Below, piece after piece: positions 1,190 through 53,381 of a DNA stretch of 64,000 nt; the first letter of the stretch is position 1, and every line of letters starts with the position of its first letter. The stretch is taken from NCBI GenBank assembly GCA_964373175.1, contig CAYJTP010000004.1, forward strand, positions 6,651 through 70,650. Reading direction: 5' to 3'. The translations under genes were made by a program, and so were the position numbers. The notes under the pieces were generated by a model that was given only the letters and a program-made list of their open reading frames with translations, searched no databases and had not been told where the DNA came from. The stretch is from an uncultured Planctomycetales bacterium (lineage in GTDB: Bacteria > Omnitrophota > Gorgyraeia > Aquiviventales > Aquiviventaceae).

Positions 1190-3337
1190 TCATCGCCCGT
1201 GGCCCTTTCCACTTTCCACTTTCAACTTTCCGCTGTTGAGGATCTGCCGCGCCGCACACGCCTCTAGAATGGCTTGGGCGACTTCATCCACGGTGATCCG
1301 TTTCATGCAGGCATGCGTGATCGTCCGACACCTCGGGGAATAACACGGACTACAGAAGACTTTCTTGTTAATGACTCGGACCAGGGAAGATGGCGGAACG
1401 TGGCGGGCAGGATCGGTGGGTCCAAACAGACACACCGTGGGGACCCCCATGGCAACAGCGATATGGAGGGGCGCTGAGTCAGTGGTGACAAAGGCCGCGC
1501 ATCGTCGGATGAGACAGGCCAGTTCCATGATCCGGGTCTTGCCAATCGCTAGCACGGGTTTGGAGCGCACGAACCGCATCAGTTGCTCGCCAAGCCGATG
1601 GTCGGATGGGCTTCCGGTCACCACCACTTGGAACCCTTGGTCTGCCAAGCGATCGCACAGGGCCGCCCACCGCTCCAGGTCCCATCGCTTCGTCTTCCAA
1701 CGCCCACTGCTCCCAAGATGCACGCCAACGAGGGGCTTTCTGATATCGCTTTGGTCGGGTGGAAGCAACGGCTCGACGGCTTGCTCATCAAGGTCAGAGG
1801 GCCAGAGCTCAAGGGCGTGTCCATCAGGAGTAATCTGGGCGGCTTCAAGGAGGTAATGCTGATGGGCCACCGGATCCATCCGGGTGCGCGGCAGAGCCAC
1901 CCGCCGATTCAGCAATCTGCCCCACCGTCGGGCATACCCAATTCGCACCGGAATCCCTGCCAGCCACGCCAACACATGGGTCAAGCGGCTGTTCTGCAGA
2001 TCAATCGACAGATCAAACCCGCCGCGTGTGAGCCGGCGCAGGAAGGTCCGCTTCCCCCGCAGTGTGCGATCCTTGCGCTGCGCATCGTACACCACCACAT
2101 CATCAACATAGGGACACCTCGCCACGACCTCATAGACGGGACGTCCCACCACTAACGTGATCGGCGACTCAGAAAACTGGCGACGGATCGCCCGAAGGCT
2201 CGGCGTCACCAGGACCACATCCCCAAGGGCGCTGAGCTTCCACACAACGATCCGGGGTTTCGACAGGCAGTCGCGATAGACCGCCTCCGTCTCATGAACC
2301 ATCTGCTCAAGGCTAAACTGCTCCTCAACGCGTCGTCTGGCGTGCTGAATGATGGCCAGACGAAGCGGCTCTTCTTGGATCAGGCGGCTGATCGCCTGAG
2401 CAAGCGCCGTGGGATCACGTGGCTCAACCAAGAGACCCGTGACACCCTCCTCAACAATCTCCGCCAAAGCGCCGAGGCGTGAGGCCACGACCGGCACGCC
2501 CACCGCGTAGGCTTCGATGACGCTTCGGCCAAACGATTCCGGATACGTGGACGGAACCACCACCACATCCAGCGAGGCCAGACGCTCGGGGATATCGTAG
2601 CGGGTCCCCAGCCACTCGATCGCCTGCGCTACGCCCAACGTGTCGGCCAGTTGCTCTAAGCGGGCTCGCGCCTGAGGGTTTCCTGCCGGCGCATCGCCAA
2701 TCACACACAGCGTCGCCGACGGATGGTGTCGCAGCAGTTGCGCAAGGGCGCGGATCGCCACGTCATGACCTTTCAACGCGCTGAACCGCCCGATGATCCC
2801 GATCCGCCACGGGCGTTCCCCATGCGGCGCGGGATCGCGAAAAGGAAACTCGACGAGATCCACGCCTCGAGGAATCACCCGCAGTCGCTCTGGAGGCACC
2901 TGGAACGTATCAATCAGATACCGCCCAAGCAGCTTGGAGGGGGCGATGACGGTGCGCCCCCAGGTCATCACACGAGAGCCAAGATGCGGTGTATAAAAGC
3001 CGTGGCACGTGGTCACAAAAGGTTTCTGGATGCGCCGCGAGGCGAGATAGCCAACCCACGCCGGCACGCGGGAGCGCGCGTGAATCACATCGACCTGCTC
3101 CTCGCGGATGATCCGACAGACCTCAGGCACGCATCGCCACAGCGCCTGAGGCGATTTGTGATGGATCGAAAGTGCATAGTGGGTTGCGCCGAGTTGCACG
3201 AGCGGCTCAACGAGCGCGCCTCCCGATGAGACCACGCTCACCCGATGCCCCCGTTGGATCAACCCCCGGGCGAGATCCAGGACCCCGCGCTCAACCCCCC
3301 CTACATCAAGACGAGGCACGAGCTGGAGGATATGCAT
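1190..3337 (-). CDS. Bifunctional glycosyltransferase. An N-terminal GT4 domain is fused to a C-terminal GT9 ADP-heptose:LPS heptosyltransferase (WaaC/WaaF/WaaQ-like) domain.
   Basis: N-terminus MHILQLVPRLDVGGVERGVLDLA… with the EX7E-like motif ([21 protein letters not shown]). C-terminal half RIVVWKLSALGDVVLVTPSLRAI…GVHLGSSGRWKTKRWDLERWAAL…TTDSAPLHIAVAMGVPTVCLFGPTDP is typical of GT9 heptosyltransferases. Confidence 0.8.
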   Translation of the reverse strand: MHILQLVPRLDVGGVERGVLDLARGLIQRGHRVSVVSSGGALVEPLVQLGATHYALSIHHKSPQALWRCVPEVCRIIREEQVDVIHARSRVPAWVGYLASRRIQKPFVTTCHGFYTPHLGSRVMTWGRTVIAPSKLLGRYLIDTFQVPPERLRVIPRGVDLVEFPFRDPAPHGERPWRIGIIGRFSALKGHDVAIRALAQLLRHHPSATLCVIGDAPAGNPQARARLEQLADTLGVAQAIEWLGTRYDIPERLASLDVVVVPSTYPESFGRSVIEAYAVGVPVVASRLGALAEIVEEGVTGLLVEPRDPTALAQAISRLIQEEPLRLAIIQHARRRVEEQFSLEQMVHETEAVYRDCLSKPRIVVWKLSALGDVVLVTPSLRAIRRQFSESPITLVVGRPVYEVVARCPYVDDVVVYDAQRKDRTLRGKRTFLRRLTRGGFDLSIDLQNSRLTHVLAWLAGIPVRIGYARRWGRLLNRRVALPRTRMDPVAHQHYLLEAAQITPDGHALELWPSDLDEQAVEPLLPPDQSDIRKPLVGVHLGSSGRWKTKRWDLERWAALCDRLADQGFQVVVTGSPSDHRLGEQLMRFVRSKPVLAIGKTRIMELACLIRRCAAFVTTDSAPLHIAVAMGVPTVCLFGPTDPARHVPPSSLVRVINKKVFCSPCYSPRCRTITHACMKRITVDEVAQAILEACAARQILNSGKLKVESGKGHGR

Positions 3338-11052: not shown

Positions 11053-11331
11053 TCAGACCAGAGACTTGAGACATGAGACTTGAGATCTGTGACTTCCTTG
11101 TCTCTTGTCTCTTGTCTCTTGTCTCTTGAACGCTCCGCCCCCCACGAACTGAACGATCTCCACCTGATCTCCCGCCTTGAGCACCGTTGAGGGCAGTTGG
11201 TCCCGTTTGAGGATCGTGAGATTCACCTCAACCACCACCCGTTCCGGCCGAATGGCGAGCTGCTCCAAGAGCTGGGCCGCCGTGAGCCCCTCGGCCACGT
11301 CTCGCCGCTGTCCATTCACCACTAACTCCAT
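11053..11331 (-). CDS. thiS: ThiS/MoaD-family sulfur-carrier protein. The 66-aa core ends …VQFVGGG and is followed by a 26-aa tail encoded by the heptamer repeat.
   Basis: MELVVNGQRRDVAEGLTAAQLLEQLAIRPERVVVEVNLTILKRDQLPSTVLKAGDQVEIVQFVGGG matches the ThiS pattern. No stop follows GGG. The frame continues as AFKRQETRDKRQG… through gagacaagagacaag repeats to a TGA at 11053. Confidence 0.6.
   Translation of the reverse strand: MELVVNGQRRDVAEGLTAAQLLEQLAIRPERVVVEVNLTILKRDQLPSTVLKAGDQVEIVQFVGGGAFKRQETRDKRQGSHRSQVSCLKSLV
11062..11135. repeat. Heptamer-repeat element (GACAGAR/GAGACAAG family), copy a
   Basis: cttgagacatgagacttgagatctgtgacttccttgtctcttgtctcttgtctcttgtctcttg, located between the thiS core and the topA start. 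Confidence 0.8.
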
Positions 11332-14264: not shown

Positions 14265-15542
14265 TTAAGGCGCATGTGTCGAGGTTGGTTGCTCCGGTGT
14301 CGCTGCCGCGAGGGCTTCCGGTGGTATGGTGATTTCGATTGGAAGGTTATGGTCGCTAAAGTCCACTGTGTTTTCGAATAAAAATTTCACGTTTTCATTT
14401 TTAGGAGGCGTACCAACTAGCTCCGCAAAGGGCCAACTCTGAATCGTTAGTCTCTTCAGAATTCCTTCTCCCTTTACATGGTCTCTCACAAGAAAATAGC
14501 TGTTTGAATCGATCCACTGCTCAGATATAAAATCAGTAACAACCAGGTTATCTTGGAATGTCGGTAGACTCTCTGGCGTATCGAGCAACCCTTGTAGTAT
14601 TTTCGCAACTCTTTGAAGACCACCGAATTTCTGCCTCACAAGGTAGCATTCCTTACCCTCCAATAAGACTTGTGCAATCTCCGCATTAGCAAATTCAGTT
14701 ATAGCGGTTTGTTTTCCCTCTGGCAACCTACCACTCGCCAAGGTTACCAAATCTTCTGGACGTTCACTAATGAATAGGTCAACTAAAGTGATCTTTCCTT
14801 CGCCCAACATATTCCAAAACTCTGCCACCCCTTTCGCGGTTTCCTCACCGGAAATTTTCTCCCAGCTTCCCAAAAAATTATGGAGCACAGCAGTCTCTGT
14901 GAAATAAATGTCTCTTTTCCTTCGCATCTCCTGTTCCACTACATTTATATCCAGTAATTGGAGGAGGTGTTGCTTTTGATCCGGCTTGAGGTTTAGGTTT
15001 TGTAGGACCTTTTGTCTCTCTTTTTGAAACAGCTCCTTAGCAAATTCACTCTCATGCCGAAGAACCTGATAGGATGCATGGTATCTCTTAGCATCAGCAC
15101 TACCAGCCCCTTCGCCTCTTGCTTCAAGATCAGTAAGGCCTTCGATTGATAAGGTGGTTTGGGCTACTGCCTTAATAGTCCGTATGGCTTTATTTACCCT
15201 CTCATATTTTGTGACGATCTCTTGAGGATCTGGAATCGGGCCGGGTTCTGAAACCTTGGTATCTTGCGTTGCCACAGGAGGCGTTTCAGATATCTTTGTC
15301 CCTGTCTCTGGAGGAGAGCTTGCCTCGATATGGGCGATGGATTCTTTCGCGTAAGGGATCGTTGTCCCACTGGAAACTTCAACTTCGACGGCGGAGTCCG
15401 TCATCTTCACAATTTTTCCCTCAATGACCTTGCCATCCTTGAAGTGGATTTTTTCAGCAAACGCCTCCTCTGACCAAAGAGCTGTGAGCATGACCACAAC
15501 CCACGCTCCCCACCATTTCCAGTCTCTTGTCTCTTGTCTCAT
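14265..15542 (-). CDS. Hypothetical secreted protein (N-terminal signal peptide). The gene has low GC (~45%) and is probably horizontally acquired.
   Basis: Signal-like MRQETRDWKWWGAWVVVMLTALWSEEAFA|EK, then a KIHFKDGKVIEGKIVKMTDSAVEVEV small beta-rich motif. No recognisable catalytic motif. Composition is markedly AT-richer than its neighbours (runs of aaa/gaa codons). Confidence 0.6.
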   Translation of the reverse strand: MRQETRDWKWWGAWVVVMLTALWSEEAFAEKIHFKDGKVIEGKIVKMTDSAVEVEVSSGTTIPYAKESIAHIEASSPPETGTKISETPPVATQDTKVSEPGPIPDPQEIVTKYERVNKAIRTIKAVAQTTLSIEGLTDLEARGEGAGSADAKRYHASYQVLRHESEFAKELFQKERQKVLQNLNLKPDQKQHLLQLLDINVVEQEMRRKRDIYFTETAVLHNFLGSWEKISGEETAKGVAEFWNMLGEGKITLVDLFISERPEDLVTLASGRLPEGKQTAITEFANAEIAQVLLEGKECYLVRQKFGGLQRVAKILQGLLDTPESLPTFQDNLVVTDFISEQWIDSNSYFLVRDHVKGEGILKRLTIQSWPFAELVGTPPKNENVKFLFENTVDFSDHNLPIEITIPPEALAAATPEQPTSTHAP

Positions 15543-15552: not shown

Positions 15553-15698
15553 TAAAACTGCTCGAGTTGGCGCAGGTAGCCGTGATAGTTGCGCTTGAGT
15601 TCGCGCAAGGAATCACCGCCAAACTTCTGGAGGATTGCATTGGCCAGTTCGAAGGCGACCATCGCTTCGCCGATCACCCCGGCCGCGGGCATGGTATT
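15552..15698 (-). pseudogene. Duplicated, diverged 3' fragment of aroC (49 codons). It is the relic of the original aroC end displaced by the MntA/HepT cassette.
   Basis: Minus-strand translation gives [49 protein letters not shown]. The intact aroC C-terminus is …[46 protein letters not shown]. Nucleotide identity is ~80% over ~150 bp (15550-15700 against 16337-16487). Confidence 0.85.
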
Positions 15699-16042
15699 CA
15701 TCGCGAGGCGCCACCCAGCAGTTCTTTGGCGGCTTCTTCAAGGCCAGAGAGCTTGTGCTGAACAACATCCCACACGACCTCAACGTTGATGCCGAAATAT
15801 TCATGGATTAAGATGTCCCGTAATCCGGCGATCTTTCTCCACTCGATATGAGGCTTCCGGCTGCGGGCATCCTCCGGCAGACGCTTCACGGCTTCGCCAA
15901 TGACTTCGAGATTCCGGACCACGGCATCCAACGTTTTCGCATCGTTCGACAGGGCGGCGACGGACATACCGCCTGTGAATTCCCGAATCTTTCGAATCGC
16001 CTCAAGGATGTCTTCGAGATAGACCTGAGGGTCCCGTGGCAT
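15698..16042 (-). CDS. hepT: HepT-like toxin (DUF86 / RX4HXY nuclease) of a HepT/MntA type II TA pair
   Basis: …[23 protein letters not shown]… contains the R-x4-H-x-Y motif. ~110 aa, immediately downstream of the cognate nucleotidyltransferase gene. Confidence 0.85.
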
Positions 16043-16322
16043 AAACCGTTTCCTTTAAAATGCCCTCCCGCAACCTCGGCTTAATCGTATCCGCCAACAC
16101 GAGATCGACGGAACATCGAAACAGGTCTTCCAGAAAAAATTTCAGGTTCATGTAGGCATCGAAGCTGTTGTGTTCAAGCTCGACGAGGAAGTCCAGGTCG
16201 CTGCCCGCACCTCCTTCATCGCGGGCGATGGAGCCAAAGAGGCCGAGTCGCCGAACGCCAAGTTGTCGGAGAGCCTGTTGGTTGTCTCGTAGACGTTTCA
16301 AGACCTCTTCTCGAGTCTTCAT
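16002..16322 (-). CDS. mntA: MntA-like minimal nucleotidyltransferase antitoxin
   Basis: GS-x9-DxD nucleotidyltransferase motif (LGLFGSIARDEGGAGSDLDFLVEL). It overlaps the hepT start, as is usual for this TA family. Confidence 0.85.
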   Translation of the reverse strand: MKTREEVLKRLRDNQQALRQLGVRRLGLFGSIARDEGGAGSDLDFLVELEHNSFDAYMNLKFFLEDLFRCSVDLVLADTIKPRLREGILKETVYATGPSGLSRRHP

Positions 16323-18356: not shown

Positions 18357-19259
18357 ACTGCGTGTACGAAGCGCCTGCTCTACCGCCCGGCGCATCACGT
18401 CAATCGGCGGCGGCCGATGCCACCACAGCCTGAATGACTCGGCTCCTTGGTATACTAACATCGGAAGTCCATCCACCGCAAGCGCCCCGCGCCGTCTGGC
18501 CTCCAGCACCAGCTTCGTCGTTGGGGCGCGATAGACCAGGTCGACCACCACCAGCCCCTTGCGAATGGTGCGCGGGGGAACCGGAAGCGGATCGCCGAGG
18601 CGAAGCCCCAGACTCGTCGCATTCACCAGCAGGTCGACCTCCTGAAGACGCCGTCCAATCGCCCGGCGCTCGAAGGGAATCGTCGTCAGCTCGAGGCGCT
18701 CGTGTGTCCCCTGCCGTGATGCGGCACGTCGTAACCACCGGATGAACCTGTTCGTATGCGCCGGTGTGCGGTTCGCCACCGTGATGCGCTCAGGAACCGC
18801 TTGCGTCAGCACCCACCCCACCGCTCGGGCCGCTCCTCCCGTCCCTAAGAGCAGAATGCGTTTCCCCCGACTATGCCAGTGGAGCGCTTCACGGAGCACC
18901 TGACGAAATCCGGCGACATCGGTGTTATACCCGATGAAGCGGCTGCCCTTGCGAACCAGGGTATTCACAGCCCCAACGACCGAGGCCGACTCATCAAGGT
19001 CTGTCCGTGGATTCAACGACCGCATGATCCGCTCTTTGTGCGGAACGGTGATATTCAACCCATCAATGCCGGCCGCTGCTAAACCCTGAAACACCGGGCC
19101 AAGGACTCGGGGCGGGACTTCGAACGGCGCATAGATGGCATCCAGCCCAAGGGCGTCAAAGGCCGCCGTATGCATGAGGGGAGACAGGCTGTGACTGATC
19201 GGGTAGCCGACCACCCCGAAGACACGCGTCATTGGAACGTGGCACGGGGCATGAGACAA
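18351..19259 (-). CDS. aroE: Shikimate dehydrogenase
   Basis: …VFGVVGYPISHSLSPLMHTAAFDALGLDAIYAPFEV… and an NADP-binding GTGGAARAV motif. The likely true start is the internal Met (MTRVFGVV, ~19232). Confidence 0.85.
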   Translation of the reverse strand: MSHAPCHVPMTRVFGVVGYPISHSLSPLMHTAAFDALGLDAIYAPFEVPPRVLGPVFQGLAAAGIDGLNITVPHKERIMRSLNPRTDLDESASVVGAVNTLVRKGSRFIGYNTDVAGFRQVLREALHWHSRGKRILLLGTGGAARAVGWVLTQAVPERITVANRTPAHTNRFIRWLRRAASRQGTHERLELTTIPFERRAIGRRLQEVDLLVNATSLGLRLGDPLPVPPRTIRKGLVVVDLVYRAPTTKLVLEARRRGALAVDGLPMLVYQGAESFRLWWHRPPPIDVMRRAVEQALRTRSR

Positions 19260-19318
19260 GGGGCAAGGGGATTATGCGGGGCTTTCTGCCCCACGCCCCG
19301 TGTCTCACGCCCCATATT

Positions 19319-20902
<1,584 letters not shown>

Positions 20903-20997
20903 GGAATGTCTCGACTAAATCAGGGGCGAGGGACGTGGGGCACGGGGCGTGGGCTCTCTGAGGCCGCCTTCGCCCCCTGTCTCCTGCCCCTTGCCCC

Positions 20998-26694: not shown

Positions 26695-27120
26695 GTTTCG
26701 TGACCCGTGATTCGTGGCTCGTGACCCGTCAGAGACTATGAATGAGTCTGACAAGCATGCGAGTTTCGTGGTTCACGGCTTCTGCGATGATCTGCATTTG
26801 CGGTGGATGCACATATCTCCTTCTTTGAGCGATAATCAACAATGTGTCCAACTCAGCACACGAACCTAACGAGACGTAAAGATGCTGCTGGTACTCCTTG
26901 GTATGGTGCCTGACAAAGCCTTCAGCGATATTCGTTGGGATTGACACGGCCGCACGTCTCATCTGACTGCTTAACCCATACATCTCCGATTGCGGAAAAG
27001 TCTCTGTCAGTTCGTAAACCAGACCGACGATTTCAACACCTTTTTGCCACACTTGAAGATCTTTATAGTCCTTCACCTTCATCGGCAGTTTACGGATCAC
27101 GGGTCACTGGTCACGAGTCA
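26695..27120. mobile_element. Low-GC cassette carrying a four-helix-bundle gene, flanked by inverted repeats built from GTGACCCGTGA units
   Basis: Left flank ttcgtgacccgtgattcgtggctcgtgacccgtcag. Right flank cggatcacgggtcactggtcacgagtcacggc, which is the reverse-complement arrangement. The enclosed gene is ~48% GC against ~62% for its neighbours. Confidence 0.55.
26729..27100 (-). CDS. Four-helix-bundle protein of the 23S rRNA intervening-sequence protein family
   Basis: 123 aa. …WQKGVEIVGLVYELTETFPQSEMYGLSSQMRRAAVSIPTNIAEGFVRHHTKEYQQHLYVSLGSCAELDT… matches this family as recalled. Confidence 0.7.
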   Translation of the reverse strand: MIRKLPMKVKDYKDLQVWQKGVEIVGLVYELTETFPQSEMYGLSSQMRRAAVSIPTNIAEGFVRHHTKEYQQHLYVSLGSCAELDTLLIIAQRRRYVHPPQMQIIAEAVNHETRMLVRLIHSL

Positions 27121-27613
27121 CGGCAAGTTTCTGGACCAGTTGGGATGAACGGGGCCCGTGGCTGATCGCCGCGATGGTCCGCTGGTTGGTCGTCCGATGG
27201 GTCAGGTAGATTTCGAGGTAGTCCTCTGGGAGACAGCCGCTGAATCGATCCGCCCACTCAATCACCGTCGCCTTCTTTGACGAGAACACCCATTCCAGGT
27301 CCAACCAGACGGCGGAGGCCGCGCCCTCCAACCGATACCCGTCGATATGGATCAGGGGGAGGCGTCCTTGATGCTCGCGTAAGAGGATAAAGGTCGGGCT
27401 TTTCACGCCTCCCGGATCGATGCCAAGCCCTTTCGCGATCCCTTGCACGAAGGTCGTCTTGCCACTGCCCAGTTCCCCCACCAGACCCACCACATCCCCC
27501 TGTGCCAGGAGCTCGCCGAGCCGCTCGCCGAGTTGGTGGGTCTCCTCCACCGAGCGGCTGATCAGTTCAAAAATGTTTGAAGCCTTTTGGGATGAGCGAG
27601 GTGATGCGGCCAT
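27104..27613 (-). CDS. tsaE: tRNA threonylcarbamoyladenosine biosynthesis ATPase TsaE (YjeE)
   Basis: Walker A VVGLVGELGSGKTTFVQGIAKGLG. ~160 aa. Confidence 0.85.
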   Translation of the reverse strand: MAASPRSSQKASNIFELISRSVEETHQLGERLGELLAQGDVVGLVGELGSGKTTFVQGIAKGLGIDPGGVKSPTFILLREHQGRLPLIHIDGYRLEGAASAVWLDLEWVFSSKKATVIEWADRFSGCLPEDYLEIYLTHRTTNQRTIAAISHGPRSSQLVQKLAVTRDQ

Positions 27614-31326: not shown

Positions 31327-32391
31327 TCAGGGGCGTGGGGCGTGGGGCGTGGGGCGTGGGGCATCGCTCTGACCGTGCCCCTCGTCTCTCGCCCCCTGCC
31401 CCAACAAATCAAGCCATTCTTCGCGTAAGAGGGTCCCGACCAATCGGGGGCTCACCATCTGCTCAAGGGACCCCCATAACTCAATGAGCCGGAGGCCCGT
31501 CTCCACGCAGCGCTCGCTGTCCACCTGCTTCGCTTGCCGATGGATCGTCGTGGCGGCGTCCCGATGGCTCACCAGCGACTCATCCGCCACGGCCGCAACC
31601 GCAAGGTCACGAAGCCACGCAATCGACCCCATGAGCCAGGAAGCCACTTCCTGACGGTCCATCGGGACCGCCCATCCCAGCCACGGAGCTGGCGAGGCTG
31701 CACCAAACTGCGCGACCATTCCCTCCAGCGCCTTCCACTGCGTCATCACCTCAAGTGCCCGCGAGAGGCTCCCTTGGGCCAGACGGCTGATGGCCTGCGC
31801 AATCTGTGGAGGACAGGCGTGCCTGGTGACCAGCGAGTCTTCGATGAGGGAAGCGGACAGCCGAGCAAACCGAATGACCTGGCATCGCGAGACAATCGTC
31901 GCAAGGCAGCGGGCGGGCTGATCGGTCAGGAGAACAAACCGCGCGTGGGCGGGCGGTTCTTCGAGCGACTTCAGGAGGATGTTCCCCGCTTCCTCGGTCA
32001 ACCGATCCGCCCCATCCACGATCACCACCTGACACGTCCCCATGAAGGGACGCAGCGCAATCCGGCCTAACACGCCCCGAACCTCATCGATCCGAATCAG
32101 CTCTGAGGCGCCATGCGGGAAAAGCCCGTGCACATCAGGATGGACCTGGCGGTCGATCCGCTGACAGCTGTCGCAGCGATCACAGGAGTCGCTGTCGCCG
32201 TGTTCGCAGTTGAGGGCTTTAGCTAATGTTCTCGCCACGAGGCGCTTGCCGACCCCATCCGGTCCCACAAAGAGATACGCAAGCGCCAGACGCTGGCGGC
32301 TCGCGTGGGTCTGCAAGATCCGAAGGGCAAGGGCTTGTCCATGAATCTCCGTCCACGCCATCCGACCGAGTCCTATCCTGAAGGCCGCCAC
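31327..32391 (-). CDS. holB: DNA polymerase III delta-prime subunit
   Basis: AAA+ fold with AYLFVGPDGVGKRLVARTLAKALNCEH and the Zn module CDRCDSCQ. The C-terminal tail (…DAPRPTPHAPRP) is encoded by GGGGCGTGGGGCGTGGGG repeats. Confidence 0.85.
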   Translation of the reverse strand: MAAFRIGLGRMAWTEIHGQALALRILQTHASRQRLALAYLFVGPDGVGKRLVARTLAKALNCEHGDSDSCDRCDSCQRIDRQVHPDVHGLFPHGASELIRIDEVRGVLGRIALRPFMGTCQVVIVDGADRLTEEAGNILLKSLEEPPAHARFVLLTDQPARCLATIVSRCQVIRFARLSASLIEDSLVTRHACPPQIAQAISRLAQGSLSRALEVMTQWKALEGMVAQFGAASPAPWLGWAVPMDRQEVASWLMGSIAWLRDLAVAAVADESLVSHRDAATTIHRQAKQVDSERCVETGLRLIELWGSLEQMVSPRLVGTLLREEWLDLLGQGARDEGHGQSDAPRPTPHAPRP

Positions 32392-34446: not shown

Positions 34447-34600
34447 CCCCCCACCTGCCTTCCCCCCCGGCCCGCCGATAGCCCTCGCCGTCCGCCCCGG
34501 CTGTCGCCGGCGTCGGGCCGGGGGGGCGGGCCGATCAAGCGTTGCGTCTCCTGTTGATTCACCTTCGGTGAATAGGCAGGTGGGGGGATCACGGGCTGTG
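34447..34600. mobile_element. MITE-like element copy 2 (~154 bp), same TIRs as copy 1, directly abutting the cysS ATG
   Basis: ggtcat|ccccccacctgccttcccccccggcccgccgatagccctcgcc…gattcaccttcggtgaataggcaggtggggggatcac. Confidence 0.65.
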
Positions 34601-39274: not shown

Positions 39275-39372
39275 ACTTCGCGATCAGAAGACAGAGGTCA
39301 GAAGTCAGAGGACAGGCGCGGCCGAGCTTATTGGGTACCTGTCTTCTGTCGTCTGTCTTCTGTCTTCTGTCC
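39275..39372. repeat. Heptamer-repeat element, copy f: inverted pair or hairpin between mlaD and radA
   Basis: gatcagaagacagaggtcagaagtcagaggacagg…ctgtcttctgtcgtctgtcttctgtcttctgtcc. Confidence 0.8.
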
Positions 39373-40103: not shown

Positions 40104-40919
40104 TCACGATCCCTTTCGCAGGACTTGCCTCCACAAGGGCTTGCGCCACTGGGTCAAGATCCGGCGATCCGGCAGCCCCTCCTGGATGGGCCCCATCGCG
40201 TGCCCCTGGATAAACTGTTGCACGATCGGGTTCTTCGACGCCTTGATGGCGTCTGGCGTCCCCACCTCCACAATGGCACCATTGTAAAGCATCGCGAGGC
40301 GATCTGCCACTTTGTAGGCGCTGCGCATATCATGGGTGACAACCACGGAGGTCACCCGGAGGCGATCGTGCAGGGTGACGATGAGGTCATTGATCACGTC
40401 CCCCATGATCGGATCGACCCCGGTAGTGGGTTCATCATAGAGGATCATTTCCGGATTCATGGCCAGTGCCCGGGCGAGCCCTGCCCGCTTGCGCATCCCG
40501 CCAGACAGCTCCGCGGGATGGAGGTCCTCGACCCCCTCCAGCCCGACAAGCGCCAGGCACTCCCGAACGCGCTGCCGAATCGCGGCGGGATCCATAGTGG
40601 TATGCTCCCGCAAGGGGAACGCGACGTTCTCCCCCACCGTCATCGAGTCAAACAGCGCGGCTCCCTGAAAGAGCATCCCGAACTTTTTCCGGAGCTCGTC
40701 GAGGGACCGGCCGGTGAGCTGCGTGACGTCGATCTCATCCACCAGCACCGATCCCTGCTCGGGCTTCATCAAGCCGATGATGTGCTTCAACAGCACGGAT
40801 TTGCCGCATCCGGAGCGCCCGATGACCACCATCGTCTCGCCGGTCTTGATCGTCAGGTCCAGGTGGTCCAGGACCAGATGATGGTTGAATGTTTTGGTGA
40901 GTTCCTTGATTTCGATCAT
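40104..40919 (-). CDS. mlaF: ABC transporter ATP-binding protein MlaF
   Basis: Walker A GRSGCGKS, signature LSGGMRKRAGLARA, Walker B ILYDEPTTGVDP. Confidence 0.9.
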   Translation of the reverse strand: MIEIKELTKTFNHHLVLDHLDLTIKTGETMVVIGRSGCGKSVLLKHIIGLMKPEQGSVLVDEIDVTQLTGRSLDELRKKFGMLFQGAALFDSMTVGENVAFPLREHTTMDPAAIRQRVRECLALVGLEGVEDLHPAELSGGMRKRAGLARALAMNPEMILYDEPTTGVDPIMGDVINDLIVTLHDRLRVTSVVVTHDMRSAYKVADRLAMLYNGAIVEVGTPDAIKASKNPIVQQFIQGHAMGPIQEGLPDRRILTQWRKPLWRQVLRKGS

Positions 40920-41007
40920 CCGCCTACCTAGGGGGCAAGGGACGAGAGACGTGGGGCGAGGAACTGGAAATCCCCACGCCCCTTGACCCCCGCCCCGCCC
41001 CCCGTCT

Positions 41008-41805
41008 TCATCGCCCGATGAAGTAGAACGCCGCCGTGATGAGACAGTCAGACGCGATGATGAGGATGAAGGACGTCACCACCGCCCTCGTGGTCGCGCG
41101 GCCCACCCCTTCCGCACCCCCCTCGGTCCGAAACCCCTCAAAGCAACTCACCACGCAGATGATCAGGGCAAAGACACACGACTTCAACAACCCAGAGCCG
41201 AGATCCTTGAAGGCCAGCGGGGTGAAGGTCATCTGCCAATAGAGGCTGGGCAGGATCCCCAGCTTCACGGTCCCAATCAGAAACCCCCCGGCAATCCCAA
41301 TCGCATCTGCCCACACGGTCAGCAAGGGCAGCGCCACGAGCATGGCCAGCAACCTTGGCACGATGAGGTAGCGTACCGGGTCGGTCGCCAGCGTCATGAG
41401 CGCATCGATCTGCTCCGTCACTTTCATGGTCCCGAGCTCCGCCGCAATCGCAGAGCCCACCCGTCCTGCCACAATGAGCGCGGTCATGACCGGGCCGATC
41501 TCTCGCACCACGGACAAGGCCACGAGGCTGGCGATATAGATCTCGGCGGCCAAGCGCTGCATCTGGTAGGCGCTCTGAAAGGCGAGGACCATCCCCACAA
41601 ACAACAACGACAGCGACACGATGAACCAGGACTGCACCCCGATCTTCCAGAGTTCATAGATGACGGCTTTGGCGCGAAGCGGCTTGACGAAACACCCGCC
41701 GACCGATTGCGCCAACAGGACGCCCAGATGCCCGGCGTAGTCCGCAATCTGCACCACCCAGGCCCCGGCTAATGCCACGGGGACGGCGACGCGGGAAACC
41801 TTCAT
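41008..41805 (-). CDS. mlaE: ABC transporter permease MlaE
   Basis: 265 aa multi-TM with the MlaE conserved region …EIGPVMTALIVAGRVGSAIAAELGTMKVTEQIDAL…. Confidence 0.9.
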   Translation of the reverse strand: MKVSRVAVPVALAGAWVVQIADYAGHLGVLLAQSVGGCFVKPLRAKAVIYELWKIGVQSWFIVSLSLLFVGMVLAFQSAYQMQRLAAEIYIASLVALSVVREIGPVMTALIVAGRVGSAIAAELGTMKVTEQIDALMTLATDPVRYLIVPRLLAMLVALPLLTVWADAIGIAGGFLIGTVKLGILPSLYWQMTFTPLAFKDLGSGLLKSCVFALIICVVSCFEGFRTEGGAEGVGRATTRAVVTSFILIIASDCLITAAFYFIGR

Positions 41806-44705: not shown

Positions 44706-44742
44706 ATTTCCGCCAGAGGCGGATCCGCCTTCGGCGGAGAAC
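44706..44742. repeat. REP-type palindrome TCCGCCAGAGGCGGATCCGCCTTCGGCGGAG. Other copies at ~8885-8925, ~60800-60845 and ~61380-61420.
   Basis: ccgccagaggcggatccgccttcggcggag. Compare ccgccaaaggcggatccgcctctggcggag (8885) and ccgccggaggcggatccgcccctcgcc (60800). Confidence 0.75.
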
Positions 44743-48401: not shown

Positions 48402-49583
48402 TTATTCATAGCGCAATGCTTCAACCGGCGACAGCCTCGCCGCCTGACGAGCGGGGTAGACCGTCGCGACCAGGCTGATCACAAACGCCGCCAAGACCGT
48501 CATGCTCCAATCGGACCATTCGATGCGAACCGGCAAGTGGTCCAGGTAGTAGATGGTGCTGGGCAGATGGATGAACTGATAGGTATCGAGCAGCCACACA
48601 ATCCCCCACGCCCCCATCAACCCACAGCCGGTTCCGATGAGCCCAATCACTACCCCCTGCCACGTGAAGATCCACCGGATTGATTGATTCGAGGCCCCGA
48701 TCGATTTGAGGATCCCGATGTCGCGGGTCTTCGCAATCACCATCATGATCAACGTCGAGACGATATTCGCTGCGGCCACGATGACGATCAGGGTCAGAAT
48801 CACAAACATCGTCAGCTTCTCAAGCTTCAAGGCATCAAAGAGCGTCTGGTTGAGCTCCATCCACGTCTTGACCAAGTAGCGGCGCCCGAGTTCGCTGGTT
48901 AACCGGGCTTTGACTTCCTCAGCGCGTTCGAGTCGATCCAGTCGAATGGCTAAGCCGCTGACTGCGTCAGACAACCCGAACAGCGCTTGCGCGCGCGGGA
49001 TGGTGACACCCACGAGGCTTGCGTCGTACTCATACATCCCGGAGCGAAAGATCCCGCTCACCACCAGCTCATGCAGCTTGCCATCCGCTGGACTGATCAA
49101 CCGCAACGGCTCACCCAGACCAGCCCCAATGTAGCGGGCCAGCTCCGTCCCAATGACGACCTCGCGATCGGAGGTGGGCAGATGCCCCATGACGAGATAG
49201 TCCCGCAGCTTGCTCACGCGGACTTCCCGCTCGACGTCCAGGCCCCGCACCATGACCCCGAAGGCCCGGTCGGGCAGCCGGATGATCGCCTGGCCGAGCA
49301 CAAACGGGCTCACCCCCGCCACATGTTCGGTCGCCGCCACCCGTCGGATCAACGACTCGACCTCCTGAATACCTGGCTCTGACTCAATGGTCAGATGGGC
49401 ATTGGCCCCAACCAATTTTTCTTTGAGGTCGTGGTCAAACCCGCTCATCACCGAGAGAACAACCAACAGCGCCATGACCCCAAGCGCGACCCCGCCGATG
49501 GACAACAACGTGATGACCGACACAAACCGCTCACGCCGTCGCGTGAGCAGATACCGCACACTCAACCACAGTTCGTAGCGCAT
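48402..49583 (-). CDS. lolC: Lipoprotein-releasing system permease LolC/LolE (FtsX/MacB-like)
   Basis: N-terminal TM, large periplasmic MacB-like domain, C-terminal FtsX 3-TM bundle (…ILKSIGASNQSIRWIFTWQGVVIGLIGTG…). Confidence 0.85.
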   Translation of the reverse strand: MRYELWLSVRYLLTRRRERFVSVITLLSIGGVALGVMALLVVLSVMSGFDHDLKEKLVGANAHLTIESEPGIQEVESLIRRVAATEHVAGVSPFVLGQAIIRLPDRAFGVMVRGLDVEREVRVSKLRDYLVMGHLPTSDREVVIGTELARYIGAGLGEPLRLISPADGKLHELVVSGIFRSGMYEYDASLVGVTIPRAQALFGLSDAVSGLAIRLDRLERAEEVKARLTSELGRRYLVKTWMELNQTLFDALKLEKLTMFVILTLIVIVAAANIVSTLIMMVIAKTRDIGILKSIGASNQSIRWIFTWQGVVIGLIGTGCGLMGAWGIVWLLDTYQFIHLPSTIYYLDHLPVRIEWSDWSMTVLAAFVISLVATVYPARQAARLSPVEALRYE

Positions 49584-49628
49584 CTCAGACTTCAGACATG
49601 AGACAAGAGACTAGAGACATGAGACTTA
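49577..49628. repeat. Heptamer-repeat element, copy g
   Basis: tctcagacttcagacatgagacaagagactagagacatgagactt, between the lolC start and the low-GC membrane gene. Confidence 0.75.
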
Positions 49629-50066
49629 AAACCGAAAATAAGTCGAGAGAGAAAAGAGAAATGCGATGACAACAGAAATTGGAACCACGAATCCCGCTAG
49701 ACCGTATAAACGCGAAAGAGGTTCTCCCATCCTTTGTTCCACCAGTCGGACTTCCTCAAGAAAGAATCTAAGTTGAAAGGAGGGATTGTACAGATACCAT
49801 CCTTTTAACAGCCGAGCGTTTGCTGTCCATGCAGACCACATTTTCAGCCAAAACGCTACGACAACTACGACAGGAGACAGCATAACCCAAACAAACCACA
49901 AGGGGGGCGGCCTGTTTCGAAAAACCAAAGACGCAGTCAGAATGGAACACCCAAACATGATGTAAGCAAGCAAATAAAGCACAAGTTGCCAGCGCTTCCA
50001 ATGCATTGCCTCAAAAAATATTCGTGCTAATTCACGTGCGAGCGTTCTCCTGTCAGTTTCTGGCAT
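49626..50066 (-). CDS. Hypothetical small membrane protein in a low-GC (~45%) gene. Probably horizontally acquired.
   Basis: 146 aa with 3-4 hydrophobic helices (…LVLYLLAYIMFGCSILTASLVF…, …LWFVWVMLSPVVVVVAFWL…). Composition differs strongly from the flanking lolC and lysS. Confidence 0.5.
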   Translation of the reverse strand: MPETDRRTLARELARIFFEAMHWKRWQLVLYLLAYIMFGCSILTASLVFRNRPPPLWFVWVMLSPVVVVVAFWLKMWSAWTANARLLKGWYLYNPSFQLRFFLEEVRLVEQRMGEPLSRLYGLAGFVVPISVVIAFLFSLSTYFRF

Positions 50067-50073
50067 TTGCAGG

Positions 50074-51582
50074 TCACTCAGGTTTCAACAAGGGAAATAA
50101 AATCACATCCTTGATTGAAGGCTGGTCGAACAAGAGCATCGCTAATCGGTCGACCCCAAGGCCCAACCCTGTGGCCGGCGGCATGCCGTATTCCAGTGCC
50201 TCAAGAAAGTCTTCGTCAACCATTCGGGGGGGCGAGGGGCGTGGGGCACGGGGCGAGGATCGGGTTTTCCCTCGCCCCCGGTCTCCCGCCCCCTGCCCCT
50301 GTTCCTTTAATTGCGCTTCAAACCGTCGTCGCTGCTCAATCGGATCATTCAATTCCGAGTAGGCGTTGGCGACCTCAAAACCCCCGATGAACAGCTCAAA
50401 CCGCTCCGCGATGAGTGGGTTGTCCAGCCGGCTTTTCGCCAAGGGTGAGAGCTCGGTCCAGTAGTCCGTCACAAAGACCGGCACGTCCTTGGTCTTGGGT
50501 TCCACGAGCTGCTCCACGACATGGAGGATCTGGGAGCGTGTCTGGGCTTTGAGCTCGACCTTCGGAAATCCCGACTTCGGCGCTTTCAACTTGCGCTGCA
50601 TCGCTTCAAGTCCATCTTGAGGACCCAAGTCGTAGCCGGTCTTGAGCAGCTCAGTGAATGAGATGATTTCCCAGTCTTTGGCCAAATCGATTGCCTGGCC
50701 TTGATAGGTCAATTGCAACCGTCCCAGCGTGTGCGTCGCGGCCCCCCGGATGAGTTCTTGGACCAACTTCATCATGTACGTGTAGTCCTCATAGGCGCAG
50801 TAGGCTTCGAGCATCGTAAATTCAGGATTGTGTTTGGTGGAGAGCCCTTCGTTGCGAAACGATCGGTTGAGCTCATAGACCTTCTCAAAGCCGCCCACGA
50901 GCAGTTTCTTGAGATACAGCTCCGGAGCGAGGCGCAGATACAGCTCACACCCCAACGTCTGATGATGGGTGACAAACGGCTCGCCCGTCGCCCCGCCTGG
51001 GATCGGATGCATCATGGGCGTTTCGACCTCGAGGTAGCCGTGCGCGTTGAGCGTGGAGCGCAGGCTGTCAAGCAGCCGGGTGCGCTGCTCGAATGCCCGA
51101 CGGACGGGCTCATTCGCGATGAGATCCAGATACCGTTTGCGATAGCGGATCTCCACGTCGCGCAGCCCATGCCATTTCTCCGGCAGGGGTTTCAGCGACT
51201 TTGCCAGCAAGGTGAAGCGGCTGACCTGAATGGTGATCTCGCCGGTCTTGGTTTGGCACAACCGGCCTTCCACCCCAAGGCAATCCCCGAGATCGATGTT
51301 GTCAAAGAGCTGATAGGCGGCCTCGCCCAGTTGCTCTTGGCGAAGGCACAGTTGGATCTTGCCGCTTGCGTCACGAAGATCCGCGAAGGTGAGTGCGCCG
51401 TGAGAACGTTTGGCGCTCAGGCGACCGGCGGTCGTGACCGTTTCGCCGTCGTGGAAGTGCTCCACCAACCACTGGATGGATCGGGTCTTGGGAAACTTGC
51501 CCCCATATGGCTGGATGCCGTGTGAGCGCAACGTGTCGCGGTGCTTTCGTCGTGCGGCTGTAAGCTCATCATAGGTACCCAT
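50074..51582 (-). CDS. lysS: Lysyl-tRNA synthetase (class II) carrying an in-frame ~25-aa palindromic-element insertion near the C-terminus
   Basis: OB-fold anticodon-binding N-terminus, class II motifs (…FRNEGLSTKHNPEFTMLE…), then …RRRFEAQLKEQGQGAGDRGRGKTRSSPRAPRPSPPRMVDEDFLEALEYGMPPATGLGLGVDRL… E. coli has …[37 protein letters not shown]…. Confidence 0.95.
   Translation of the reverse strand: MGTYDELTAARRKHRDTLRSHGIQPYGGKFPKTRSIQWLVEHFHDGETVTTAGRLSAKRSHGALTFADLRDASGKIQLCLRQEQLGEAAYQLFDNIDLGDCLGVEGRLCQTKTGEITIQVSRFTLLAKSLKPLPEKWHGLRDVEIRYRKRYLDLIANEPVRRAFEQRTRLLDSLRSTLNAHGYLEVETPMMHPIPGGATGEPFVTHHQTLGCELYLRLAPELYLKKLLVGGFEKVYELNRSFRNEGLSTKHNPEFTMLEAYCAYEDYTYMMKLVQELIRGAATHTLGRLQLTYQGQAIDLAKDWEIISFTELLKTGYDLGPQDGLEAMQRKLKAPKSGFPKVELKAQTRSQILHVVEQLVEPKTKDVPVFVTDYWTELSPLAKSRLDNPLIAERFELFIGGFEVANAYSELNDPIEQRRRFEAQLKEQGQGAGDRGRGKTRSSPRAPRPSPPRMVDEDFLEALEYGMPPATGLGLGVDRLAMLLFDQPSIKDVILFPLLKPE
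50226..50302. repeat. GC-rich hairpin element (GGGGCGAGGGGCGTGGGGCACGGGGCGAGG … CCTCGCCCCCGGTCTCCCGCCCCCTGCCCC) inserted in frame in lysS
   Basis: Read directly. It is translated as QGQGAGDRGRGKTRSSPRAPRPSPP. Related non-coding copies at ~20920-21000, ~31330-31400, ~40925-41000 and ~19250-19320. Confidence 0.75.
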
Positions 51583-51812: not shown

Positions 51813-53381
51813 TTACGTTGTCCTAACCCTGTGTTTGACGAGGGGTTGGAACCAGAGCCATCCAAAGGCCACCACAAGACACAGCCACGCAAACCAGTCT
51901 CCCCACCTGGCATACAGGGTGTGAGACTGACTCGGCTGCACGTCGCAGACCGAAAACCCCTCAACAAAGAGCTCCTTGCCCTTCGAGTTCTGGACGCTGG
52001 CCTGCCAACGGCCGGTTTCATCAATGCAGCCGGACCAGCCGGTGTTGGCCGCACGGATCATCGGCACGCGCAGTTCCACGGCTCTGAACGCCGAGGCTTG
52101 TGCATGCTGGTACGCGGCCGCCGTATCGCCAAACCACGCGTCGTTGGTGATCGTAACCAACATCTGAGCTCCCCGGTTGACAAATTGTCGAGCCAACCCT
52201 GGGAAGATGTCTTCGAAACAGATCAACACACTAAAGCGGGGCGGGGGGCGGGGGGCGGGGGGCGGGGAAACCAACTCATGCCCGTGCCCCACGTCTCTCG
52301 CCCCATGCCCCTCCACGTCAAATACGGTGTACTCATGGCCTGGCACAAAGTTGCCGATCGGCGGCAAGACTCCCCGCAGCCACGGAAAGACTGACTCCAG
52401 AGGGATGAATTCCCCGAAAGGCACCAGATGAAGCTTGTCGTACCGTGTCAGGATGGCTCCCTCGGCATCCAGCAACACGGCGCTATTCGTCAGATACCAC
52501 GTGCCGTCCCGCAAGACACCCATCGGCGCACCGACCAACAAGGGCGTCTGGATCGATTGGGCCAATTGCTTGATCTGCATCGTCATCTGAGCATCTAAAC
52601 CAACATAGCCGGGTACCGAGGTTTCCGGCCACACGATAAGCTGCGGGTGGTGGCGAGCCGCTTCGTGCGTGAGCCGTTCATAGCGCTCAACAATGGACTG
52701 CTGAAACGCCTCGTCCCATTTTTCCTCTTGGGGGATGTTGCCTTGGACGACGGCGATCTTGAGCGGTGTGGTGGGAACAAACTGCTGAAGACGCGCTTTG
52801 CCATACGCCCAGCTTGCAACCACACAACCAAGTGCCAGGGTCATCATGGGAATGACGCGGTGCGCCTCACGCTGGCTCAGATAGCTCGCAATCGCCACAT
52901 TCACCATGACCAGCAGAAACGACACGCCCCAGACACCAGTTACGTCAGCGACTTGGATGGCCGTCAATGCTGGTGTCTGCGAATAGCCCAGGAGGTTCCA
53001 TCCAAAACCCGAGAGGAGATGACTACGCAGGTACTCAAGCGCAACCCACGCAGAGGGAATAAGAAGGTGATGGGTGATGGGTGATGGGTGATGGGTGAAC
53101 TTATGAGCGAGCCAGCCAAATACGCCGAAAAAGAGCGCGAGGTATGCGCAGAGCAGGGTCAATCCCACAAGCGTCACATGCACAAGCCACCAAATGGTGC
53201 CAAGGAAAAACACAAGCCCGACGAGATACGACCAGCCAAATGCTTGCCGCGGGCTCAGCGTCTGCAGACTGATCAGCCATGGGACCAGCGCCACCCACGC
53301 GCACCACGGCTGGTTCCAGTTCGGGAAAGAGAGAGCCAGCAGGACGGCGCTACTCAGCGCCAGGAGGAGCGATTGCAACAC
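51813..53381 (-). CDS. lnt: Apolipoprotein N-acyltransferase carrying an in-frame ~23-aa GC-rich element insertion in the CN-hydrolase domain
   Basis: N-terminal multi-TM region plus CN hydrolase domain (…IAVVQGNIPQEEKW…, …VLICFEDIFP…). Insertion …VFDVEGHGARDVGHGHELVSPPPAPRPPPRFSVLICFE… The start is read as GTG at 53379-53381. Confidence 0.85.
   Translation of the reverse strand: MLQSLLLALSSAVLLALSFPNWNQPWCAWVALVPWLISLQTLSPRQAFGWSYLVGLVFFLGTIWWLVHVTLVGLTLLCAYLALFFGVFGWLAHKFTHHPSPITHHLLIPSAWVALEYLRSHLLSGFGWNLLGYSQTPALTAIQVADVTGVWGVSFLLVMVNVAIASYLSQREAHRVIPMMTLALGCVVASWAYGKARLQQFVPTTPLKIAVVQGNIPQEEKWDEAFQQSIVERYERLTHEAARHHPQLIVWPETSVPGYVGLDAQMTMQIKQLAQSIQTPLLVGAPMGVLRDGTWYLTNSAVLLDAEGAILTRYDKLHLVPFGEFIPLESVFPWLRGVLPPIGNFVPGHEYTVFDVEGHGARDVGHGHELVSPPPAPRPPPRFSVLICFEDIFPGLARQFVNRGAQMLVTITNDAWFGDTAAAYQHAQASAFRAVELRVPMIRAANTGWSGCIDETGRWQASVQNSKGKELFVEGFSVCDVQPSQSHTLYARWGDWFAWLCLVVAFGWLWFQPLVKHRVRTT
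52237..52316. repeat. GC-rich element (GGCGGGGGGCGGGGGGCGGGGGGCGGGG … CCCGTGCCCCACGTCTCTCGCCCCATGCCCCTCC) inserted in frame in lnt
   Basis: Read directly. It is translated as EGHGARDVGHGHELVSPPPAPRPPP. Same GGGGCRNGGGGCAC family as the lysS element. Confidence 0.7.

Follow-up and report, generated by a model that had tools for sequence, protein, structure and literature searches.

The nature and spread of the intervening sequences (IVSs) of ribosomal RNA (rRNA) genes and of the S23p proteins have been open questions since about 1990, and IVSs without an open reading frame (ORF) are known. Palindromic repeats that lie in frame within essential genes have been described chiefly in Rickettsia; as Ogata et al. 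are said to have reported in 2000, Rickettsia palindromic elements lie between genes as well as in frame in conserved essential genes, where they add a surface peptide while the function of the protein is kept. Heptanucleotide repeats are without an accepted explanation. Here we analyse a GC-rich hairpin of tandem heptamers within lysS, the gene of lysyl-tRNA synthetase (LysRS), on a stretch of 64,000 nucleotides (positions 6,651 to 70,650 of contig CAYJTP010000004.1, the window in what follows) from an uncultured Planctomycetales bacterium assigned to the Omnitrophota. The core of this hairpin is probably an ORF-less copy of a dispersed repeat of the IVS type, designated family A, which is tolerated in a permissive loop of LysRS.

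In the 23S rRNA IVS of Coxiella burnetii, a 28-bp terminal stem carries an S23p ORF in its loop and is cut by RNase III (PMC4990558). Its arm is made of tandem heptamers, three times GACAGAT plus GACAGAA, the number of which varies between strains, and its origin and mobility are unresolved (PMC4990558). Heptamer repeats are over-represented in bacteria (PMC4692102, PMC4679880), and in Geobacter tandem 'four heptanucleotide' elements occur both within and between genes (PMC2700814). The Rickettsia palindromic elements are mentioned in PMC10969869 and PMC1779305.

The host gene lysS (ORF 50074..51582, minus strand) encodes a class II lysyl-tRNA synthetase of 502 aa. Its product contains the Pfam domains PF01336 (tRNA_anti-codon, OB-fold) and PF00152 (tRNA-synt_2, class II core) and is matched by solved LysRS chains at E=4e-131. 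Minus-strand translation of 50215-50322 yields FEAQLKEQGQGAGDRGRGKTRSSPRAPRPSPPRMVD, in which the 25 codons QGQGAGDRGRGKTRSSPRAPRPSPP (50227..50301, minus strand) form the in-frame translated span of the element, as delimited by the translation, by the gap to homologues in the Protein Data Bank and by the LysS alignment. The hairpin core at 50229-50299 comprises 71 nt with two 28-nt arms of 4+4 heptamers; in its general pattern, four GGGGCNN units precede a loop of 11 nt and four NNGCCCC units follow it. On the plus strand it reads GGGGCGA GGGGCGT GGGGCAC GGGGCGA GG-ATCGGGTTTTC-CC TCGCCCC CGGTCTC CCGCCCC CTGCCCC. In the sense of the gene, the 5' arm (50272..50299, minus strand) is GGGGCAG GGGGCGG GAGACCG GGGGCGA, the third unit GAGAC being the signature of family A, and this order of units recurs in other copies of the window and in the loci L081 and L082 (comparison loci carry L numbers and LysS homologues P numbers). 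According to the fold and to loop comparison, the 11-nt loop GAAAACCCGAT (50259..50269, minus strand) codes for Lys-Thr at the tip and resembles the GAAAACCnGTTyTC loops of the lysS and lnt copies in L081 and L082. The 3' arm (50229..50256, minus strand) consists of the four heptamers TCGCCCC GTGCCCC ACGCCCC TCGCCCC. As sense RNA the hairpin has a dG of -51.5 kcal/mol (z=-3.2), a value equalled by 1 of 200 dinucleotide shuffles, and its stem carries a mismatch every 7 nt.

The sequence-only reading of this DNA had claimed 25 extra residues that are in frame and match a hairpin. The codons at 50227-50301 agree with this, and the coordinates given at that time were right to within 1 nt. The translated span indeed comprises 25 codons; the net excess, however, is smaller, amounting to 17 residues as compared to solved LysRS and other phyla and to 22 as compared to Omnitrophota orthologues with an empty site. 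The insert sits just ahead of the DEDF...EYGMPP block, motif 3 of LysRS. Mapping onto a structure, also proposed at that stage, was performed with AlphaFold2 and a 30-sequence alignment. The model places the insert before motif 3 as a loop between helix 414-429 and helix 457-464, the latter of which leads into the motif-3 strand, and residues 431-465 have a pLDDT <50 and no secondary structure. The insert is thus predicted to be an unstructured loop; because other loops of the model are also of low confidence, this result is consistent with the placement and not decisive. Intein or intron features were not seen in the element: its 25 aa are below intein size, and the Rfam search of the element gave no family and only chance matches to miRNA hairpins below threshold (24-27 bits as compared to gathering scores of 70-97).

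To compare orthologues, the length of the LysS segment between NDPxEQ and EYGMPP was measured. In 60-odd lysS genes of other phyla this segment is fixed at 29 aa; in the Omnitrophota clade of the window it measures either 24 aa (L083, L085 and L088, the empty sites) or 43-55 aa (the filled sites). All seven filled sites with fetched DNA form strong hairpins of period 7 with a dG of -43 to -59, and there a share of 0.48-0.67 of the bases equal the base 7 positions away, versus ~0.25 elsewhere. At the unfilled sites dG is weaker than -21, except for a non-heptamer insert in L012 at -37. It had been set down beforehand that the presence of the segment in homologues lacking the DNA repeat would contradict an in-frame element. 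In the alignment, the segment is absent where the repeat is absent, namely in L083, L085, L088 and the other phyla. Among 120 LysS homologues (61-100% identity), 45 have the short segment and 75 (about 60%) an extended one, and the conservation of the frame across all of them argues that the element is read through.

Five peptide families of inserts were listed: family A (GQGAGDRGRGKT..PHAPRPTP, from units GGGGCNG), B (AQGSRLKAQGK..LQPSAFSL, from GGCTCAA/GCCTCCA), C (GSGLGAEGSGQ..PRAPSPEPRA), D (VQGSRVKVQGKNLEPRTLNLE, from GGTTCAA) and E (EGSRVKGEGK..LHPxPST). Family A is present at the lysS site in two reading phases (GQGAGDRGRGK versus GGRGQETGG). The LysS protein of the window is 76% identical to that of L087, which carries family B, and 66-69% identical to those of L081 and L082, which carry family A. 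The family-A insert of the window is 76-78% identical in DNA to the inserts of L081 and L082, with lysS third-codon positions at 45-51%; among family-A lysS inserts overall the DNA identity is 76-87%. LysS hosts that are 92-95% identical may carry different families (P0049 with C and P0054 with E; P0045 with B and P0098 with C) or differ in being filled or empty (P0040/P0107 and P0039/P0109). On average, hosts that share a family have an identity of 0.756 and hosts of different families one of 0.741. In P0063, P0064 and P0087 the site is occupied by internally deleted remnants that are still in frame. Judged from these alignments, the insert families are incongruent with the LysS tree and do not reflect vertical descent of one insert. 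Since family and state differ between near-identical hosts, the lysS site is a hot spot with fast turnover. It is a recurrent hot spot of at least 5-6 heptamer families across the Omnitrophota and not the site of a one-off insertion.

Two further inserts at this position should be mentioned. In L086 (8166-9743, the lysS of P0003) a GC-rich hairpin CCCCCTGCCCCCCCCCGTGGCTCTCAAGCCGGGGCGGGC is nested in the left arm of a GGCGCAA/GCCTCCA heptamer hairpin, within a segment of 55 aa, which suggests that elements insert into resident elements. The LysS of L012, from the metagenome-assembled genome (MAG) Bacillota Ch109, has a surplus of 20 aa at the same position (…KLEEAKQRLADLGKKSDLRLALSDDKAY…) with a dG of -37 and no period-7 signal. 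It may be that this loop of LysRS tolerates unrelated inserts in general.

The 64-kb window holds six copies of family A, the one in lysS and five others: three between genes, one at the end of an ORF as its tail and one in frame within lnt, the neighbouring gene. A 30-mer of the lysS element finds one more match in the window at <=3 mismatches (0 expected), and GGGGCRNGGGGCAC finds 5 matches at <=1 mismatch (0.47 expected). The arms of the family are 5' GGGGCRG with the characteristic GAGAC third unit, and 3' of the CACGCCC type. The copy in lnt (52238..52311, minus strand, in ORF 51813..53381) codes for ...GHGARDVGHGHELVSPPPAPRPPP.... Four further copies had been named in the sequence-only reading as non-coding. 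All of them exist, but the one at 31330..31402 (minus strand) makes up the last ~25 codons of a holB-like ORF (DNA polymerase III delta', 31327..32391), with the stop codon directly after it, and is probably a translated C-terminal tail and not non-coding. The intergenic copy at 20923..20997 (minus strand) directly borders on the stop codon (20998-21000) that ends an 84-aa ORF, and the start of ORF 19319..20902 (527 aa) follows 21 nt downstream; the metagenome locus L132 contains an orthologue of this copy with the same right flank. The second intergenic copy (19246..19313, entered without strand) has a shifted unit order, with 5 nt between it and the stop codon of the 527-aa ORF (19319..20902). 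The third (40932..40996, plus strand) has the opposite orientation and is located between an mlaE-like gene (41008..41805) and an ABC ATPase gene (40104..40919).

The lnt gene has two such variable insert sites, which behave like the site in lysS. At its main site heptamer hairpins are present in the window, L081, L082, L084 and L087; L085 and L088 have none there. Within one genome, the inserts of lnt and lysS are of a single family in the window, L081, L082 and L087, and in L087 both copies share the imperfect complement GGCTCAA versus GCCTCCA. Block transfer of lnt-lysS was considered as the cause of these matched families and rejected, as both proteins, apart from their inserts, are more similar to those of genomes that carry other families. 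The second lnt site (53061-53103, minus strand) carries a single-arm (GGTGATG)x4 array, whose in-frame translation ...THHPSPITHH... falls in a variable loop of the N-terminal membrane domain; orthologues have other heptamer arrays there, e.g. L087, and (CAGACAT)n in L081.

Outside the window, the family-A signature GGGGCNNGGGGCNNGAGACNNGGGGCNNGG matches at least 120 metagenome stretches. A count of coding against non-coding copies, which had been suggested with the first description of the element, revealed both kinds: among 83 copies, 26 lie inside long stop-free frames and 31 are intergenic or in short frames, while 3 form ORF tails, 8 have no open frame through the element and 15 are at contig edges. 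In-frame hosts confirmed by Pfam are an RluD-type pseudouridine synthase, TsaD, ValRS (two copies) and an AIRS/PurL-like protein (two copies); the spanning ORF of L143 is LysS by its conserved motifs. At the rluD site another heptamer family is present at the same place in L092, and family A has opposite orientations at the tsaD site (L125 versus L144) and at the lnt site (L137 versus L152, ORFs identified as Lnt by conserved motifs). The earlier view that lysS is one of several housekeeping genes tolerating an in-frame element is therefore borne out by the same family in lnt, tsaD, rluD, valS and an AIRS/PurL-like gene. Likewise, a selfish element in frame in an essential gene is supported by the dispersed family, by the filled and empty sites and by the other housekeeping hosts, although that the lysS element is 'inserted' and 'selfish' is what we infer.

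Longer relatives of the hairpin carry a gene. In the window, an element of another heptamer family (26697..27124, minus strand; delimited by Pfam, NCBIfam and its inverted repeats) surrounds a gene for a 123-aa four-helix bundle. This gene, 26729..27100, belongs to PF05635/TIGR02436, '23S rRNA intervening sequence protein', and its arms, CGTGACC-type at 26697-26729 and GGTCACG-type at 27092-27124, are inverted arrays of 4 units that are 84-94% complementary. A profile search of all frames of 1.63 Mb of fetched DNA found eight four-helix-bundle genes, all of which (8/8) are located in a loop between inverted heptamer arrays. The arms belong to family A in four cases (L096, L109, L110 and L139) and are built of other units in the remaining four; identity among the A-armed proteins is 60-73%, and between them and the others 17-44%. 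Moreover, 4 of 6 cyanobacterial plasmid homologues are bracketed by inverted heptamer arrays, e.g. GGGAGTA/TACTCCC in Nostoc, and units of the GACAGAA/GACAGAT type occur in the window arrays 14182-14232 and 39284-39315. Since long forms with the same arms exist and the Coxiella element has this architecture, the lysS element is best regarded as an IVS-type element in its short form, without the ORF.

Regarding the long forms themselves, those of family A in L109 and L110 apparently occupy, by eye, the same position between the end of a yggS-like and the start of a proC-like gene, from which it follows that long forms, too, would persist or recur at orthologous sites. On plasmids of Nostoc, Geminocystis and Anabaena (L209, L210, L212 and L213) genes annotated as 'four helix bundle protein' or 'S23 ribosomal protein' lie between inverted arrays of ~7-nt period, the one of L209 between two ribonucleotide reductase subunit genes. 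In L214 (Gemmatirosa) the flanking CTCCTGC arrays are direct, not inverted.

With the 23S rRNA IVSs of Coxiella burnetii and Leptospira (PMC4990558), the element shares the 28-nt heptamer arms, the PF05635/TIGR02436 gene in the loops of long forms and an essential gene that is not destroyed. It differs in that the lysS copy is ORF-less with an 11-nt loop, lies in a protein-coding gene and has a stem mismatched every 7 nt. Furthermore, the 23S rRNA IVS is cut out by RNase III, whereas the lysS copy must be read in frame, and its site is 23S helix 25/45, whereas family-A copies were found between genes or in protein genes in DNA that contains no rRNA gene. An analogy may be drawn to the Rickettsia palindromic elements, which are likewise dispersed palindromic repeats in frame in conserved protein genes. 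Their host is Rickettsia, however, and they are about 100-150 nt long versus about 71-75 nt here, a comparison made by description and not between consensus families. Unlike them, family A has tandem-heptamer arms, shares one site with several other families and has gene-bearing long forms.

The heptamer element also falls within the definition of heptanucleotide long simple sequence repeats (LSSRs) and short tandemly repeated repetitive (STRR) sequences, i.e. tandem 7-nt units beyond chance. With such repeats (cyanobacterial STRR; Geobacter metallireducens GGGACCG x4; Xanthomonas/Nostoc GGGNATC x4; Beggiatoaceae TAACTGA; PMC2700814, PMC4692102, PMC4679880) it has in common the number of about four units and a location mostly between co-oriented genes near stop or start codons; in Geobacter some copies are found within genes as well. 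These repeats are described as direct arrays, in contrast to the complementary arrays, defined ends, fixed unit order and four-helix-bundle long forms of family A. The repetitive extragenic palindromes (REPs), REPINs and their RAYT proteins (PMC3116915, PMC3733652, bioRxiv 10.1101/2024.10.14.618302) are alike in being short, abundant, imperfect palindromes with long-kept orthologous positions and in having several families per genome, each thought to be paired with its own protein. Family A is unlike them in lacking the GTAG/CGTC tag, in not being restricted to extragenic DNA and in its arms of periodic heptamers. MITEs (miniature inverted-repeat transposable elements; Correia, Nezha; PMC10969869) also have an ORF-less short form that shares terminal inverted repeats with a gene-bearing long form, and occasional in-frame copies; here, however, there is no target-site duplication, and the gene of the long form encodes a ~120-aa four-helix bundle and not a recognisable transposase.

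According to the proposed mechanism, the lysS copy would have come from another genomic locus, either by insertion or by conversion or replacement of a resident element. It would be read through in frame, being translated and not removed, and would add ~24 Gly/Arg/Pro-rich residues as a disordered surface loop before motif 3. We propose that it is tolerated because GC-rich heptamers are free of stop codons and the site lies outside the conserved core. The element would then be neutral or slightly deleterious, i.e. selfish, and not functional.

Ends, flanks and loops were analyzed in 40 unique complete family-A copies. Their ends are sharp (GGGGC...GCCCC), and their lengths centre on 72-77 nt. 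Several observations weigh against an IVS-type mobile repeat in lysS. At the junctions of these 40 copies neither a target-site duplication nor a flank motif was found, and their ends and flanks carry no REP-type GTAG/CGTC tag. No transposase was detected among the 13 of ~57 window ORFs that were scanned against Pfam. Between copies of a single genome the arms are conserved but most loops are unrelated, which is unusual for recent transposition and agrees no less well with gene conversion or with constraint acting on the arms; the exception is GAAAACCnGTTyTC, common to the lysS and lnt copies of L081 and L082 and to the lysS copy of the window. Recurrence at exactly the same sites in lysS, lnt, tsaD and rluD would call for conversion, for resident hairpins being targeted or for a very strong filter by tolerance, all of which are putative, and translation of the insert we infer from frame conservation only. 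The correlation between arms and proteins has n=8 with loci chosen on arm A, and the IVS link consists of shared architecture and cargo without any copy in an rRNA gene, the DNA examined containing none. The window ORFs scanned (64 kb of genome covered) include no RAYT gene either. Given the missing duplication and flank motif, the conserved arms with divergent loops and the lnt-lysS match, conversion or hairpin-targeted replacement fits at least as well as transposition.

Within the arms, the variable NN positions do not covary: 117 of 280 are paired, versus 130.6 +/- 7.4 after the partners were shuffled. At position 7 of every unit a purine-purine mismatch is conserved, and the unit GAGAC stands opposite GCCCC in 28 of 35 copies. 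The lack of covariation implies that each arm keeps its own consensus and pairs without compensatory change. An attempt to determine the functional strand from G.U wobbles versus A.C mismatches was dropped, the plus strand being more stable in four and the minus strand in two of the six family-A copies of the window; because nearly all genes of the window lie on one strand, the directions of transcription and replication are inseparable here. The idea that the A-rich loop with its Lys is an ancestral lysS residue framed by the arms was also rejected, since the same GAAAACC loop is found in the lnt copies of L081 and L082.

Of the other explanations, the one that survives best, though we consider it unlikely, is a functional cis-element on the lysS mRNA or DNA whose hairpin is under selection, the peptide being a by-product. 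It might serve as a site of processing, by RNase III or otherwise, make the ribosome pause ahead of motif 3, act through its (GGGGCNN)x4 arm as a G-quadruplex (G4) switch, or be an array bound by a heptamer-reading protein. Extension of about 60% of the 120 Omnitrophota LysS homologues at this single site speaks for it, as do the conservation of the arms (76-87% versus 45-51% at synonymous sites) and the precise positions of most copies next to stop or start codons. In addition, four units are favoured in the G4-forming GGGNATC repeats as well (PMC4692102), and the homologous stem of the Coxiella IVS is cut by RNase III (PMC4990558). However, the site is empty in hosts that are 92-94% identical (P0107, P0109), the family is swapped between near-identical hosts, and one and the same site holds the element in opposite orientations in tsaD (L125 versus L144) and in lnt (L137 versus L152). 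Decayed in-frame remnants are common, most heptamer families are unable to form G4, and the absence of covariation between the arms (117/280 versus 130.6 +/- 7.4) likewise argues against selection on the hairpin.

Somewhat less likely still is an origin in situ, by slippage of a seed heptamer and intrastrand template switching, so that the likeness between loci would be convergence by mutational bias. The insert families at the lysS site do keep one register, with Gly at fixed positions and Lys at the tip, and heptamer copy number is variable, with single-arm arrays among the forms seen; the number also differs between Coxiella strains (PMC4990558). Heptanucleotide repeats have been ascribed to polymerase slippage and are the commonest long simple sequence repeat in many bacteria, as far as Mrazek 2007 is summarised in PMC4679880. 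Slippage would have to produce the idiosyncratic order GGGGC-GGGGC-GAGAC-GGGGC with the CACGCCC arm again and again, however, as this combination recurs at unlinked loci of the window, in L081 and L082 and in at least 120 metagenome stretches. Further arguments against it are the same imperfect complement, GGCTCAA versus GCCTCCA, in the lnt and lysS copies of L087, the related gene carried by long forms with the same arms, and the two phases of family A at the lysS site.

RNA-binding appendages of aminoacyl-tRNA synthetases are often rich in Arg, Lys and Gly. So is the insert, and its tip Lys is common across families, which would fit a lineage-specific LysRS peptide selected at the protein level, e.g. 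as a tRNA- or partner-binding loop, with the hairpin being incidental. We regard this as very improbable, as the family peptides are unrelated (GQGAGDRGRGK..., AQGSRLKAQGK..., GSGLGAEGSGQ...), each is a translated heptamer hairpin also present in non-coding DNA and in unrelated proteins, close relatives are without the insert, and the insert is predicted to be disordered. Repeats can produce chimeric joins in metagenome assemblies, but a repeat misjoined into the lysS of this MAG is the least credible explanation of all, given an identical 502-aa protein from two sources (NCBI and Logan assemblies, P0001), an intact frame, and dozens of independent assemblies with the element at the same codon position.

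Beyond the IVS-type repeat tolerated in lysS, hairpins of 4+4 heptamers are, to judge from the window and its relatives, a broad class filling gene boundaries in this Omnitrophota lineage. As a tentative generalisation, for which the odds are somewhat unfavourable, heptamer hairpins and TIGR02436/PF05635 proteins might form one widespread class of mobile or self-converting elements with protein lineages matched to the arm heptamers. This class would include the 23S rRNA IVSs, the cyanobacterial STRR-type arrays and many of the 'four tandem heptanucleotide' elements, and its ORF-less forms would colonise permissive loops (lysS, lnt, tsaD, rluD, valS), with families rapidly replacing one another. 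In the literature covered, which was incomplete, we found no account of heptamer hairpins of Omnitrophota, of their in-frame hot spots, or of a link between S23p and heptamers beyond the Coxiella IVS. One lineage here unites short intergenic, short in-frame and IVS-protein-bearing long forms of the 4+4 heptamer hairpin. Since near-identical hosts are polymorphic for filled and empty sites and for family, the copying mechanism, the role of the four-helix bundle and the cost to the host are directly testable. For annotation, it means that loops and C-terminal tails of low complexity that are rich in G, R and P would, in these MAGs, be translated repeats and not lineage-specific protein features.

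Period-7 arrays number 24 in the window, as compared to 0-2 when the period is 5, 6 or 8-11 and to 0.1 in shuffled sequence, and related Omnitrophota loci show a similar excess of period 7. The units include GGGGCNN, GAGACWW, CAGARGA, GTCCATA, GGTGATG and GGGCTGT/CCCCGAG. Many arrays are paired with a complementary array to form a hairpin, single-arm arrays exist as well, and most adjoin stop or start codons; nearly all genes of the window are on the minus strand. Three arrays, one in lysS and two in lnt, lie inside conserved proteins. Others form C-terminal tails of called ORFs, namely 21322-21382 (ilvC-like), 39336-39376 (MlaD-like), 31330-31402 (holB-like) and 1193-1237 (ORF 1190..3337); such tail elements seem either to adjoin stop codons or to lengthen reading frames. 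In the ThiS-family ORF 11053..11331, a GAGACWW/WWGTCTC hairpin at 11054-11134 is read through as an extension of ~26 aa, the Pfam ThiS domain covering residues 5-66 of 92. Because ThiS/MoaD proteins need a free C-terminal Gly-Gly, either this ORF was miscalled or its tail has to be taken off.

A 425-aa ORF (14265..15542) with a GC content at third codon positions (GC3) of 0.45, versus ~0.7 for its neighbours, is bracketed by inverted GAGACNN/NNGTCTC arrays (14234-15553; 81-94% complementary) and looks like a heptamer hairpin with 1.25 kb of cargo. As a candidate transposase it was rejected, having no Pfam hit and just sub-threshold N-terminal matches to Leptospira lipoprotein families. Between lysS and a lolC-like gene lies a 146-aa ORF (49626-50066; GC3 0.44) with no family match, adjoined by a GAGACWW array at 49582-49629. 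The same gap contains a HepT/MNT pair in L081, DUF2204 and small ORFs in L085, small ORFs in L083 and nothing in L088, so that this intergenic slot looks like a landing site for cassettes. Another HepT/MNT toxin-antitoxin pair (15698..16042, 16002..16322) is situated in the window between 150-nt direct repeats (15547-15696 and 16334-16483) that are 79% identical.

Finally, a repeat scan of the window revealed at least three more GC-rich repeat families without a heptamer period, comprising CGCCCCCCCGGCCCGCCG...-type 40-80-mers, CCCTGCCCGCC...GGGCAGGCGGG palindromes and TCCGCCAGAGGCGGATCCGCC palindromes. Their copies lie, in a first group, at 25325-25394, 25877-25917, 28479-28560 and 34450-34531, in a second at 1076-1164, 12609-12766, 25605-25646 and 25943-25987, and in a third at 8886-8920, 44706-44740, 60800-60848 and 61349-61426.

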